A DNA stretch of 62,335 nt. Origin: a virus. Lineage: Duplodnaviria; Caudoviricetes. The notes below the pieces were generated by a model. The model was not told where the DNA came from. It ran no database searches and saw only the letters and a list, made by a program, of their open reading frames with translations. Made by a program: the position numbers and the translations under genes. Shown piece after piece: positions 31,485 through 33,730 of the stretch; the stretch's first letter is position 1, and each line of letters opens with the position of its first letter. Location: IMG/VR virus record IMGVR_UViG_3300032770_000023, positions 1 through 62,335 of that record. One strand, written 5' to 3'.

Positions 31485-31928
31485 CGGCGCCAGCGCAAAG
31501 GGCCGCTAGTGTTCATCCACACGAAAGACGCGAAGGCCGCAACGTTGAAAGAGATCATCAAGCGACACATCGATTCTCGCGTGCAATACGTGATGACTGA
31601 CGATTCGACTACGGCAGCAATAGCGCTGCGCGAGGTTCCGATAGATGGGATACGCCCGAAGCATCGCGTAGTCAATCACAGCATCGGCCAATACGTGGTG
31701 AATGGATTCGTTCACACGAACACAATCGAATCAGCATTCTCGCTATTGAAACGTGGGATCATAGGCAGCTTCCACAAGGTTTCGATAAAGCACTTGCAGC
31801 GCTATTTGAATGAGTTTTCCTACAGGTTCAATCGGCGGGAAGATGCGGACGCATTCATAGAGACGGTGCGCCGTTTGGCGGGATTCCAACCACTGCCGTT
31901 TGATGTGCTCACTTCTGAGAAGGCTTAG
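31485..31928 (+). pseudogene. IS1595 transposase, C-terminal fragment
   Basis: MTDD, VNHS, HTNTIESAFSLLKRG and YLNEFSYRFNRR present; Zn ribbon, HTH and first catalytic Asp absent. Confidence 0.88.
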
Positions 31929-32025
31929 GTGGTTTCTTGGGCGATTTTATTTCAGATGTTTTCTTAGGCGAAGTTTCGATCATTCGCTTGAGAAGTTCGT
32001 CGAATTGGCCTTTGTCCGTCTTCAT
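31909..32025 (-). CDS. 38-aa Lys/Pro-rich peptide antisense to the transposase 3' end
   Basis: Manual translation MKTDKGQFDELLKRMIETSPKK...; RBS AGGGGTG; below the ORF-track cutoff. Confidence 0.55.
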   Translation of the reverse strand: MKTDKGQFDELLKRMIETSPKKTSEIKSPKKPPKPSQK

Positions 32026-32092
32026 AGATACACCCCTAAACAGCATCGCCCCAGGGACGGCTCTCTGGGGCGACGACTGCCAAAATTGTGTA

Positions 32093-32197
32093 GCTAACCT
32101 GTCCCGTTAGCAGTTATCACGCTATCGAGCGGGAAAGGTTCGTGTCAAATTATTCAAGTAACCCGGAAGGATACGCCTGTCCTCATACCCTTTCCGG
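32093..32197 (-). ncRNA. Two hairpins with loops complementary to the tRNA(GUC) anticodon loop
   Basis: Minus strand GCTAAC-GGGACAG-GTTAGC (32111-32093) and CCGGAA-A-GGGTATG-AGGACAGG-CGTATCC-TTCCGG (32197-32163). Confidence 0.65.
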
Positions 32198-32224
32198 CCA
32201 GTTCACCGTGCCGTCAACAGGAAC

Positions 32225-32300
32225 TGGTGGACCTGACGGGAGTTGAACCCGCACTTCGTAACGGGACAGGTTAGCGTGCTGCCAATTACACCACAGGCCC
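32225..32300 (-). tRNA. 76-nt tRNA, anticodon GUC (Asp), with Ala-type acceptor (G3:U70, A73)
   Basis: GGGCCTG TG GTGT AATTGGCA GCAC G CTAAC CTGTCCC GTTAC GAAGT GCGGG TTCAACT CCCGT CAGGTCC A CCA; full cloverleaf with encoded CCA. Confidence 0.88.
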
Positions 32301-32452
32301 AGAGACATCATATCACTCAAGTCAACTACCTTAAAAGTCCGACATGCACTCATTCTAAAAGGTTTGCTGAGCCATCCCGAGCATGGTTGCAAACATGGTA
32401 TATATCTATGATAAAATTCCAGCAAGTCGCAGAGATTTAAGCAGGCGCACCT

Positions 32453-32959
32453 ATGAAAGAAAAATTAAGTCCAGCCGTGGAAGTGCTCTACGAAAAACTG
32501 CAGGAGCAGCAGACCGCTGTCGCAACCACCAAAAAATTAATCAATCAACTGACGGTCATGATGGGTGAGGCAGCCCCATTTCCTGATGTTGAACCGGAGA
32601 GTGTGGTTGGCGTGACTCGTCCAGATCAGTACTATGGCAAGGCGCCAACGGTTGCTGCAGAGGAATACCTAAAGCGGCGAGCACAAGCGTGCTCGATTGA
32701 AGATATTCAAAAAGGATTGGAACAGGGCGGCTTTGATTTCGAGTCAATGGGATGGAAAGCAAAAGACTACGTGCGAATGCTGGCCATCACTCTCGCCAAG
32801 AATCCGCAAAAATTTCACAAACTGCCGAGCAATGCGATCGGGTTAACCGAATGGTATCCGAATGTGGTGGTTAACAAGCGGACAGAGAAGGTTTCGCCGG
32901 CAGAGTCATTGCCCGTGCAGTCTCAAGATGACTCTCACCCAAGGAATACAAACGAATGA
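32453..32959 (+). CDS. Coiled-coil plus winged-helix protein, HARE-HTH/RNAP delta-like
   Basis: N-terminal helical heptads; AEEYLK...SIEDI and KFHKLPSNAIGLTEWY resemble the HARE-HTH C-terminal F...GL..WY signature. Confidence 0.6.
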   Translation: MKEKLSPAVEVLYEKLQEQQTAVATTKKLINQLTVMMGEAAPFPDVEPESVVGVTRPDQYYGKAPTVAAEEYLKRRAQACSIEDIQKGLEQGGFDFESMGWKAKDYVRMLAITLAKNPQKFHKLPSNAIGLTEWYPNVVVNKRTEKVSPAESLPVQSQDDSHPRNTNE

Positions 32960-33093
32960 GAATACTTATAGCCCTTCCCTATCAATGCAGCGCGTCACCG
33001 TAGGGTTGGGCGAAAACACAAAGGCCCCAAACCAGAAGCCTTGGAGGGAAGCTGGTTTAGAGCCGTGGTGATTCGCTTTTGTTTGCCCCAACC

Positions 33094-33179
33094 GGAGGGC
33101 GACTAGTTGGCACTAGAACGCGCCTTATAAGCGCGGGTTCTTTCATTGGAACGGGGTCCGATCCCCCCGCCCTCCGCCA
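33094..33179 (+). tRNA. 8/4 allo-tRNA-like gene, anticodon UAU, long variable arm, G73, CCA
   Basis: GGAGGGCG A CTAGT TGGC ACTAG AA CGCGC CTTATAA GCGCG G GTTCT TTCATT GGAAC GGGG TCCGATC CCCC CGCCCTCC G CCA. Confidence 0.82.
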
Positions 33180-33216
33180 TTGTAGCAAAATACGCCCCAA
33201 GGAGGGCGTTACCTGT

Positions 33217-33522
33217 ATGGCGCTGTCTGAAGGAAAACCTTACAACAAAGCTACCGTGAATCTTAGTGCTCCACCACTCTCAGGCGTCTACGGAATTTTC
33301 CGCTCTAACGCTTGGATTTATTGGGGCGAGGCGATCAACATACGAGATCGCCTGACACAGCATCTCGACTCCGATTACGTTCAGAATCCATGCATTCCAG
33401 CGAATGCCCCTACGGGATTCTGTTACGAATTGGTGGCGGGGGGCAAAGAGGCTCGTGTACAACGTCAGGATTATTACATCCTGTCGCATGGTTCTCTTTG
33501 TAATCGGAAGATTGGCAGCTAG
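33217..33522 (+). CDS. Small GIY-YIG nuclease-family protein
   Basis: SGVYGIF...WIYWGEAINIRDRLTQH motif; SD GGAGG upstream of ATG 33217. Confidence 0.75.
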   Translation: MALSEGKPYNKATVNLSAPPLSGVYGIFRSNAWIYWGEAINIRDRLTQHLDSDYVQNPCIPANAPTGFCYELVAGGKEARVQRQDYYILSHGSLCNRKIGS

Positions 33523-33730
33523 TCCCAACACCGTCGATTGCTCCAGTGAAGCGAGTGAAGTAAACATCAACTCCATTCACAGTGATTACGGTGTATAGCC
33601 CCAACTTTCTAACCTCTACCGTTGTATCGAGTGCGCGGGAGTGATAATCACACTCCCGCACAATCGCCGGAAATCCCGCCAAGTTTAAAAGCTTTCCAGC
33701 CCACAGTTTTATTTCGGACCAGCTCGCCAT
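33410..33730 (-). CDS. IS-B cargo, hypothetical protein
   Basis: 106 aa ORF reading inward from the right TIR; overlaps the GIY-YIG 3' end convergently. Confidence 0.5.
   Translation of the reverse strand: MASWSEIKLWAGKLLNLAGFPAIVRECDYHSRALDTTVEVRKLGLYTVITVNGVDVYFTRFTGAIDGVGTSCQSSDYKENHATGCNNPDVVHEPLCPPPPIRNRIP

Follow-up and report, generated by a model that had tools for sequence, protein, structure and literature searches.

The stretch of DNA analysed here, referred to as the window, is a virus record (IMG/VR IMGVR_UViG_3300032770_000023), a metagenome-derived contig of 62,335 nt in which a large terminase gene (28911–30179) indicates a phage context. The region 31488–33841 of the window very probably represents the rightmost two thirds of a cargo transposon of the IS1595 family, inserted in a different IS1595-family transposase gene of the phage. 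The transposon carries an allo-tRNA with the anticodon UAU, allo-tRNA(UAU), behind a conserved pseudoknotted RNA (the leader), and transposases of this lineage keep the matching rare codon, AUA, at fixed sites. The overall explanation that we favour, with some reserve, is that of a truncated allo-tRNA(UAU)-bearing IS1595-type transposon whose tRNA would act on the element's own transposase.

Relatives of the element were gathered through its 168-aa protein, for which 85 homologues were found at E≤0.001; an alignment-based fetch yielded 110 loci with 93 distinct protein segments. Presence counts were taken only over distinct loci with enough flank for the feature in question. Individual loci and contigs are given L numbers. 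Transposases of the lineage that belongs to the tRNA-bearing cargo transposon are termed A-type, and those of the second, different IS1595-family lineage B-type.

The cargo transposon and the two incomplete transposase genes

The first of two transposase pieces (31488–31928, plus strand) is a C-terminal remnant, approximately residues 170–311, of an A-type IS1595-family transposase (Pfam DDE_Tnp_IS1595, 5.1e-20). The Pfam match covers profile positions 46–153 only; neither the left inverted repeat nor the N-terminal half of the protein has been retained. The remnant is 67.8% identical to residues 170–311 of the intact transposase of L051, which has both a Zn ribbon and an ISXO2-like DDE domain, while the window remnant has the DDE domain only. 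The second piece (33841–34240, minus strand) comprises the N-terminal 133 codons of a B-type transposase gene (Pfam Zn_ribbon_IS1595, 4.8e-13). Its open reading frame (ORF), of 169 aa, continues into a terminal repeat, and the NCBIfam transpos_IS1595 match stops at residue 133. This piece is 93.5% identical to residues 1–139 of an intact 309-aa transposase in the viral contigs L112/L113.

An earlier prediction made from the letters of the window (the original prediction) had placed the whole region within one IS1595 element. This description has to be abandoned, because the two pieces come from different lineages and a terminal repeat lies at the junction. The C-terminal piece (31488–31925, plus strand) is 67–86% identical to transposases adjoining allo-tRNAs in related loci, whereas the N-terminal piece is only 35–41% identical to the transposases of tRNA-bearing elements. 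The Pfam spans are those of a DDE C-terminal half (31479–31925, plus strand) and a Zn-ribbon N-terminal half (34240–33734, minus strand). An inversion of 31479–33730 that split a single transposase was considered and was rejected on the same two grounds.

The right terminal inverted repeat of the cargo transposon (33819–33841, minus strand) has a 20-nt core, reading from 33838 down to 33819, which is present as a single copy in the window. DNA homology to the intact B-type gene stops at 33841, exactly where this repeat starts. In L049/L051, L072/L073 and L112/L113, the 20-nt repeat forms inverted pairs that bound whole elements of 2.0–3.7 kb. Target duplications of 8 bp were read from the printed contexts just outside such repeat pairs (TTTCACAC; GTAGTGAC); the duplication is 8 bp long in L051 and L112, and 7 of 8 bp match in L072. 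The window retains the right repeat alone, so that no duplication can be read there.

Intact A-type elements share the order left repeat, transposase, small antisense ORF, protein gene, leader, allo-tRNA(UAU), variable cargo slot and right repeat. The slot of the protein gene is usually occupied by the 168-aa family; L113 has a different coiled-coil and winged-helix-like ORF, L117 a DUF5343-like ORF, and L115 none. DNA homology between the window and related elements is limited to 31487–32025 and 32956–33187. In the simplest history that would account for this arrangement, an A-type cargo transposon inserted into the B-type IS1595 gene of the phage, and a later deletion took the left repeat, the first ~169 transposase codons and the rest of the B gene. 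With the left repeat and the N-terminal half of the transposase lost, the window copy cannot move by itself. A search of viral contigs with a 166-aa neighbour gene revealed no related phage with an empty site, and L112/L113 share with the window only the B-type gene and one 82-nt piece.

At its left side, the homology to related elements begins abruptly at 31487/31488, inside the transposase, at a junction without counterpart elsewhere. This junction, the origin of the record as a metagenome-derived virus contig, and the presence of at least one other allo-tRNA(UAU) variant in the same sample could suggest an assembly artefact that joins pieces of different metagenome molecules. We regard such an artefact as very improbable for the region as a whole, since the right junction is exact, with the terminal repeat abutting the B-type gene where homology ends, nested or truncated copies occur in independent contigs (L076 and L119), and the public DNA run that holds the stretch contains 98% of its sampled words. 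Contigs of this run, the one public DNA run with the stretch, covered 2 of 30 bins, and no RNA run was listed for the stretch. One contig of the run carries another allo-tRNA(UAU)-like variant, which matches the window over 30 nt (33147–33176) and has loose ends on either side of the match, indicating that several such elements coexist in that sample.

A third, apparently intact IS1595-family transposase gene of the window (26234–27205, plus strand) encodes 324 aa with a DDE_Tnp_IS1595 match (2.8e-39) and a Zn ribbon. With identities of 37% to the B-type and 29% to the A-type gene, it brings the number of different IS1595-type genes in the phage genome to three. L076 (2959–5285) is a rearranged A-type copy, in which the protein gene comes immediately after the left repeat, with a truncated transposase in inverted orientation downstream. 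L119 (1–1595) is a decayed A-type copy with a broken acceptor stem in the allo-tRNA and a stop inside the transposase frame.

The pseudoknotted leader and the allo-tRNA(UAU)

The leader (32957–33080, plus strand), recognised by covariation and by nhmmer and covariance-model matches, occupies the interval from the stop codon of the 168-aa gene to a point 13 nt short of the allo-tRNA. Its start in other loci likewise falls at the stop codon of the upstream gene or no more than a few dozen bases from it, and the motif is always immediately 3' of that gene. Its structure was derived from an alignment of 22 instances. Three helices make up the structure: one of 12 bp, interrupted by an internal loop; a long hairpin whose base, GGCCC/GRGCC, is conserved; and a 5-bp pseudoknot, in which UCACC in the first hairpin loop pairs with GGUGA after the second hairpin. 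Bases can pair in 85.2% of the cells of this structure, compared to 27–40% in slid controls, and 13 of the 25 pairs show compensatory change. The covariation score of 0.319 (0.05–0.10 for slid controls) was reached by none of 500 shuffles. For the pseudoknot alone, the paired fraction is 96.4%, and L051, L005 and L089 carry compensatory changes in it. The structured leader noted in the original prediction is therefore well supported by covariation. None of 4227 Rfam covariance models matched the leader, either at E≤1 in a scan of positions 30500–35500 of the window or at the leader positions of L051, L072, L076, L008 and L053.

We found the leader in 30 of 87 distinct loci (35 if weak matches are included). 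Some instances stand in chromosomal islands adjoining integrases or IS1-type transposases, where no allo-tRNA accompanies them. Among the loci, the leader is the constant partner of the 168-aa gene, and both kinds of tRNA found in the window are rarer.

The allo-tRNA(UAU) (33094–33179, plus strand, 86 nt) was detected by ARAGORN and scores 96.7 bits against model R1; it has no Rfam match at E≤1. Its acceptor, T and D stems have 8, 4 and 5 bp, the D stem carrying a UGGC tetraloop, and the variable-arm stem has 4 bp; the tRNA further has G73, CCA and a CUUAUAA anticodon loop. Features that characterise 8/4 allo-tRNAs are all present: the RNAalifold consensus has 8 and 4 pairs in the acceptor and T stems, the variable arm is long, the D stem carries a tetraloop, and the discriminator base is G73. 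In an alignment of 11 sequences fitted to the model, 90.9% of cells are paired (97.4% of acceptor cells and 100% of T-stem cells), compared to 45–58% after sliding. Compensatory changes affect 16 of the 26 pairs, including all five of the anticodon stem; a MAFFT alignment gave 15 of 26. The anticodon loop is CUUAUAA in 7 of the 11 sequences, and CCUAUAA, CUUGUAA, AUUUAUA, CGUAUAA or CUUACAC in the others. This pattern of change argues for selection on the allo-tRNA to keep the shape of a tRNA.

A strong allo-tRNA is present in 8 of 79 loci of 168-aa relatives, and a downstream tRNA-like gene of any kind, including weak and low-threshold calls, in 15 of 79. Of 151 genomes sampled from a single family, that of the metagenome-assembled genome (MAG) G001, eight contain strong R1 matches (≥69 bits). 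Within 1.5 kb of flank, five of the eight strong-R1 loci that were fetched have an A-type transposase and five have the leader. Matches of ~50–57 bits and 90 nt are probably ordinary long-arm tRNAs; one of them, L122, is a tRNA-Ser according to ARAGORN. Downstream of the allo-tRNA locus of L033, a 940-kb metagenome contig, a match to the Rfam DUF3800-VI motif was noted (5044–5108, minus strand; 35.4 bits, gathering score 35).

Allo-tRNAs have been defined by the 8/4 branch, the long arm and other such features (Mukai et al. 2017, Nucleic Acids Res 45:2776, PMC5389517), and UAU is their predominant anticodon according to the main text of that study. The same text reports that other allo-tRNAs are processed, charged with serine or alanine, and decode in Escherichia coli, as directed by identity elements and not by the anticodon, and that GAG and UAA species insert serine. 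It also describes an Edaphobacter allo-tRNA(UAU) pseudogene that overlaps a "transposon-related" ORF, with toxin-antitoxin genes nearby. These allo-tRNA(UAU) findings are repeated in a 2020 review (PMC7609411); in the literature searched, these two papers alone treat allo-tRNAs together with transposons.

AUA codons of the transposase and the proposed action of the allo-tRNA

AUA accounts for 32 of the 120 isoleucine codons in the A-type transposases (seven distinct genes), compared to 3 of 114 in ten other IS1595-type genes, 90 of 1191 in a set of 64 long, mostly acidobacterial ORFs from the fetched loci, and 78 of 618 in the phage's own long ORFs. Four sites share AUA in alignment columns of the A-type genes, in 6/6, 3/3, 4/6 and 4/6 sequences; they lie in the contexts LPL-I-VWF, GI-I-GSF, VS-I-KHL and AF-I-ETV, in genes that are 53–77% identical. 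The same four recur in the gene of L115, from an independent genome. Among pairs in which one sequence has AUA and both have isoleucine, the codon is identical in 34 of 42, and the corresponding third-position identity at four-fold sites is 0.48. At three of the AUA sites, other IS1595 transposases have polar, aromatic or proline residues, not aliphatic ones. The four 168-aa genes that were examined (window, L051, L072 and L076) contain no AUA. The A-type genes that keep AUA at the same four to seven sites were noted at L051 2068–3000, L072 122–1051, L113 49–973, L115 2111–3049 and window 31488–31925. We take the codon pattern, obtained from a small sample of related genes, as a lead: it is compatible with a rare-codon gate and leaves the choice between isoleucine and serine undecided.

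Since AUA is rare and is kept at fixed sites of the transposase, the element's own transposase would be the main target of the allo-tRNA. The protein gene, the leader and the allo-tRNA would form one transcript, in which the leader pseudoknot may govern the fate of the RNA by controlling either whether the tRNA is released or how stable the message is. We infer that the allo-tRNA, once processed and charged, would act as a tRNA at AUA. The transposase, and not the host proteome, would then be tuned or recoded through a rare codon, much as in the case of bldA. The latter encodes the tRNA-Leu(UUA) that controls TTA-containing genes in Streptomyces, where the supply of the tRNA gates translation. 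Self-directed control of transposase translation by the leader-tRNA unit, through the conserved AUA codons, is proposed here tentatively. A bolder form, which we think unlikely, would be a self-directed switch of the genetic code, in which an allo-tRNA(UAU) with serine-type identity, matured behind a pseudoknotted RNA, sets the amount of transposase and possibly the identity, isoleucine or serine, of four to seven AUA sites. Under such a switch, the second tRNA of the window and the hairpins complementary to its anticodon (see below) would be a further experiment of the same kind.

Several observations weigh against the overall explanation favoured here. The T loop is UCCGAUC, not the usual form, which in tRNAs is UUCRA. 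U33 is replaced in 2 of the 11 allo-tRNAs (L043 and L033), and three others have different anticodon loops. No allo-tRNA was found in 20 of the 26 leader-positive loci with 300 nt downstream. In related transposases, the residues that replace isoleucine at AUA sites are mixed (three T, two G, one A and one R versus two V, three L, one M and one I); none is serine, and recoding to serine is thus without direct support. The A-type genes are also related to each other, so that the shared AUA sites are only partly independent, and the junction at 31487 may be an assembly join. No enrichment of CCA codons was observed in the transposases adjoining the UGG tRNA-like genes of L017 and L018, whose anticodon reads CCA. 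Finally, none of six UAU-to-CUA variants suppressed an amber codon in E. coli, two of them being lethal, and the authors suggested in their main text that the UAU class is not used in translation (PMC5389517).

Some of these observations would also be explained if the leader and allo-tRNA served as a structured 3' end of the mRNA, involved in processing, stability or protein binding (a tRNA-shaped 3' cap, or a decoy for a host or transposon factor that binds tRNA), with the second tRNA of the window a decaying, functionless pseudo-tRNA. The inactivity of UAU-class allo-tRNAs in E. coli translation, as described in the text of PMC5389517, would be expected of such an RNA. The same is true of the leader being the more constant partner of the protein gene, of the non-canonical T loop and the loss of U33, of the existence of decayed copies such as L119, and of the resemblance of the winged-helix fold of the 168-aa protein to that of RNase R. 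A non-decoding RNA is nevertheless somewhat unlikely. Alongside its covarying stems, the allo-tRNA retains a full acceptor stem, CCA, G73 and a CUUAUAA loop that includes A37 and A38, as a charged, decoding tRNA needs, and the conserved AUA codons of the adjoining transposase would be left unexplained.

Companion genes, the tRNA(GUC) segment and related systems

The 168-aa protein (32453–32959, plus strand) has a long N-terminal helix and a C-terminal winged-helix (HARE-HTH-like) domain, according to the homologue alignment and the structural model. The AlphaFold2 model, computed from 35 sequences (predicted local distance difference test score, pLDDT, 79.8), consists of the long helix, a linker and the winged helix. 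No Pfam or NCBIfam family was matched, and the profile of HARE-HTH (PF05066) in particular did not match. The best Foldseek matches in the PDB are N-terminal domains of the RNA polymerase delta subunit, with weak E-values of 0.025–1.2, none at or below 0.001, and probabilities up to 1.0 (9a6y, E 0.025; 2krc, E 0.25; 2m4k, target TM-score 0.72). In the Atlas, PF05066 occurs in 11–50% of the members of neighbouring clusters, where the RNase R winged-helix domain is found too. The HARE-HTH-like ORF of the original prediction thus stands as a fair description of the predicted fold, which is closest to the delta N-terminal domain, but not as a profile-level family assignment.

The gene of this protein is single-copy in all five MAGs searched, and is therefore not multi-copy in those genomes. 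An IS1595-type transposase accompanies it in 14 of 93 distinct loci. IS1-family transposases adjoin the gene and its leader in L067 (2370–3203, minus strand; Pfam DDE_Tnp_IS1) and, as judged by eye, in L002, L046 and L033, and an integrase-like ORF (also by eye) and an ordinary tRNA lie upstream of the gene in L004 and L005. These IS1, integrase and IS1595 neighbours indicate that the protein-plus-leader pair travels with several kinds of mobile elements. Distant relatives, in Planctomycetota MAGs and in viral or metagenome contigs, are likewise followed by odd tRNA-like genes. Examples are the UGG genes of 88–97 nt without CCA in L017 (4758–4854) and L018 (5095–5182), both with a convergent IS1595 transposase behind them, a GCU species of 74 nt in L028 (4659–4732) that lacks a long arm, and a pair with AGU and CGU in L110 (3785–3957). 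In the acidobacterial MAG of L008, two matches to the Rfam Acido-Lenti-1 RNA (2435–2481 and 2635–2679, minus strand; 37.3 and 30.4 bits, gathering score 37) are located ~1.5 kb upstream of the 168-aa homologue.

ARAGORN found exactly two tRNA genes in the whole window, the allo-tRNA and an irregular tRNA(GUC) (32225–32300, minus strand; Rfam tRNA, 50.9 bits). The latter is 76 nt long, with a 7/5 acceptor/T branch, G3:U70, A73, C37, C38 and an encoded CCA. The mismatched identity features that the original prediction had seen in the two tRNAs, G3:U70 and A73 in tRNA(GUC) and G73 with a long variable arm in the 8/4 tRNA(UAU), are present in the ARAGORN structures. Its two anti-anticodon hairpins are also real features of the DNA. 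The first (32163–32197, minus strand), read from the sequence and its fold, displays the loop GGACAGG in the RNA (CCTGTCC at 32176–32182), which is complementary to the seven anticodon-loop positions 31–37 of tRNA(GUC). The second, a hairpin that shows GAC (32093–32111, minus strand), is in minus-strand RNA an exact complement of tRNA(GUC) positions 26–42. The underlying repeat, 17 nt and 100% complementary (32093–32109 versus 32259–32275), is the longest inverted repeat in 31300–34400. The 266-nt minus-strand RNA folds with a z-score of −4.49, equalled by none of 200 shuffles, and in its minimum-energy fold the anticodon arm of tRNA(GUC) is sequestered by the downstream 17-nt copy.

A GC-rich hairpin with an inverted repeat, resembling a terminator (32046–32073, minus strand), separates the anti-anticodon elements from a small Lys-rich ORF (31909–32046, minus strand) that is antisense to the 3' end of the transposase. 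This ORF encodes 45 aa, or 38 aa from the second Met. The 38-aa ORF of the original prediction gains credit from tblastn matches of 54–69% identity at the same position in related elements; no match was found in Pfam, NCBIfam, PADLOC or PHROGs.

For the segment 32026–32446, in which tRNA(GUC) lies with both of its anti-anticodon elements, none of the related loci gave a DNA match. Global alignments of tRNA(GUC) to eight ordinary and eight irregular tRNAs gave 57–71% identity and no clear parent. From these comparisons, the segment appears to be an addition peculiar to the window copy. An irregular tRNA upstream of the 168-aa gene, on the opposite strand and at ~250 nt, occurs in 8 of 77 loci; the anticodons elsewhere vary (UUG, UGC, GCU, ACU, GCC, CCC and two irregular loops). 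G3:U70 is found in one of nine distinct upstream tRNAs, that of the window, and is one C-to-T transition away from the G3:C70 stem of L044. Exact complements of at least 7 nt were sought for ten distinct-locus tRNAs, and the downstream sequence reaches 200 nt or more for seven of these; matches to the anticodon region came from the window (17 nt) and L047 (9 nt) alone. The L047 match is marginal and its fold unremarkable (z −0.21), so that a long anti-anticodon repeat is present in one of seven testable loci, the window.

The cargo slot of the window holds a gene for a 101-aa stand-alone GIY-YIG-type protein (33217–33522, plus strand), recognised through its homologue family and alignment, and a convergent 106-aa ORF that overlaps its end (33410–33730, minus strand). 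The GIY-YIG ORF of the original prediction falls into a genuine family of proteins of ~100 aa, for which 278 representatives were found at E≤0.001. Four of ten members scanned reach the Pfam cut-off; the window protein itself stays below it (17.2 bits against PF01541, cut-off 22.6). The alignment keeps the GVY, YIGE, R, H, E and N positions. Y25, Y35, G37 and N96 are the same in all 20 sequences aligned, and R45, H49 and E71 in nearly all. The 106-aa ORF has no family match in Pfam, NCBIfam, PADLOC or PHROGs; it is 64.6% identical to a homologue in L144, and is probably a real partner gene of the GIY-YIG gene, with which it looks like a two-gene cassette. In the viral contig L144 (2309–2985), a leader-like motif was noted ahead of a GIY-YIG homologue that carries a frameshift; the homologue of the 106-aa ORF is again convergent, and there is no tRNA. 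Other copies carry a Gp49-like toxin with HTH_37 (L051), an NYN-domain protein (L117) or unrelated ORFs (L072 and L115) in the slot. The GIY-YIG gene is variable cargo.

No defence family was matched in PADLOC by the 168-aa, GIY-YIG, 106-aa and 45-aa proteins, and no PHROGs family by seven proteins. A promoter scan returned two sites, compared to 2.3 expected.

The original prediction had combined these parts into a proteome-mistranslation module serving as a toxin, an addiction system or an abortive-infection system, in which regulated missense tRNAs (alanine at GAC and serine at AUA), restrained by RNA structures in cis, act together with the winged-helix protein and the GIY-YIG nuclease. 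Identity features are indeed present on both tRNAs, and the 17-nt and 7-nt anti-anticodon elements exceed chance. The cargo accompanying allo-tRNA(UAU) is often of a conflict type, as with the Gp49-like toxin and HTH_37 of L051, the NYN RNase of L117 and the GIY-YIG protein of the window. Other allo-tRNAs insert serine or alanine at sense and stop codons and kill E. coli, and two of six UAU-derived variants were lethal, according to the text of PMC5389517. The prediction had stated that no description of the combination was known. The allo-tRNA(UAU), however, was published in 2017 and was already tied there to a transposon-related ORF and toxin-antitoxin genes, and the missense-decoder interpretation restates a hypothesis that the text of PMC5389517 offers for that tRNA class.

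We consider such a module quite improbable, mainly because its parts do not travel together. Among homologues of the 168-aa protein, the conserved co-occurrence that it implies was not observed: the allo-tRNA is present in 8/79 loci and the upstream tRNA in 8/77, and both occur only in the window (none of the seven other allo-tRNA loci with at least 350 nt upstream has both). G3:U70 and the long anti-anticodon repeat are each confined to one locus (1/9 and 1/7). A GIY-YIG homologue lies beside the 168-aa gene in none of 110 loci, and the one homologous GIY-YIG locus examined (L144) is without a tRNA. With tRNAs that are rare and do not co-occur, and the GIY-YIG gene absent, "two mismatched tRNAs plus nuclease" is not a conserved module. 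Furthermore, tRNA(GUC) keeps G10, G34, U35, C36 and C38, the identity elements of aspartyl-tRNA synthetase, and may simply be charged with aspartate. Its position 37 is a pyrimidine, which is rare in working tRNAs. GAC is a major aspartate codon of the phage (295 GAC versus 320 GAT in 37 long ORFs), and the element's own genes use both GAC and AUA. PADLOC gave no match, and the window copy is truncated and immobile.

IS1595-family insertion sequences with passenger genes form a recognised grouping in ISfinder/TnPedia. Intact relatives of the window copy resemble them in their transposase with DDE_Tnp_IS1595 and Zn-ribbon domains, their short terminal inverted repeats, the 8-bp duplication and the extra genes before one end. 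They differ in that their passengers include a structured RNA and a tRNA-like gene kept across a lineage; no paper that pairs IS1595 with tRNA-like genes was found in the literature searched. As in the bldA system, a dedicated tRNA would be paired with a rare codon kept in particular target genes. Unlike bldA, the tRNA and its putative target lie on the same mobile element, and the identity elements point to serine, not isoleucine. The 3' ends of plant-virus RNAs carry tRNA-like structures with an upstream pseudoknot domain. The succession of coding RNA, pseudoknotted region and tRNA-shaped 3' end with CCA is similar here; this is an analogy only, as the present case is a bacterial or phage DNA element without sequence relation to those RNAs.

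The closest known relatives are the allo-tRNA(UAU) species of Acidobacteria described in PMC5389517. The features in common are the 8/4 branch, a long, tetraloop-capped D stem, a long variable arm, G73 and UAU, an acidobacterial and soil origin, and transposon-related and toxin-antitoxin neighbours; a missense or non-translational role was hypothesised for them. The main text of that study does not name an IS family, inverted repeats, a winged-helix partner, a pseudoknotted leader or AUA codons, although its figures S5 and S6 may show some of these. In comparison to the allo-tRNA(UAU) genes described in that text, the window copy lies in a phage, within a truncated element. The irregular tRNAs of soil-metatranscriptome "polycistrons" in the same study are also similar: they are 7/5 or 8/4 species with disagreement between anticodon and identity elements, near allo-tRNA-like genes, and the upstream tRNAs found here (UUG, UGC, GCU, ACU, GCC, CCC and GUC) are of the sort that occurs in those polycistrons. 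Unlike these, tRNA(GUC) of the window is divergent, on the other strand, and is followed by two complements of its own anticodon loop, which the text of PMC5389517 does not mention.

The combination of two mismatched tRNAs is thus a one-off in a dead element and not a conserved system. The allo-tRNA(UAU), in turn, is the commonest allo-tRNA of soil metagenomes, with a role that has been open since 2017, and can now be placed inside a defined IS1595-type transposon. Previously described only as "associated with transposable elements", it is located behind a conserved pseudoknotted RNA and near a transposase that keeps the matching rare codon. Its abundance would be explained by hitch-hiking on a successful element. 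If the bolder, unlikely form of the proposed action on the transposase is correct, this lineage would represent a mobile element with a private, self-directed genetic-code switch, operated through its own AUA-reading tRNA.

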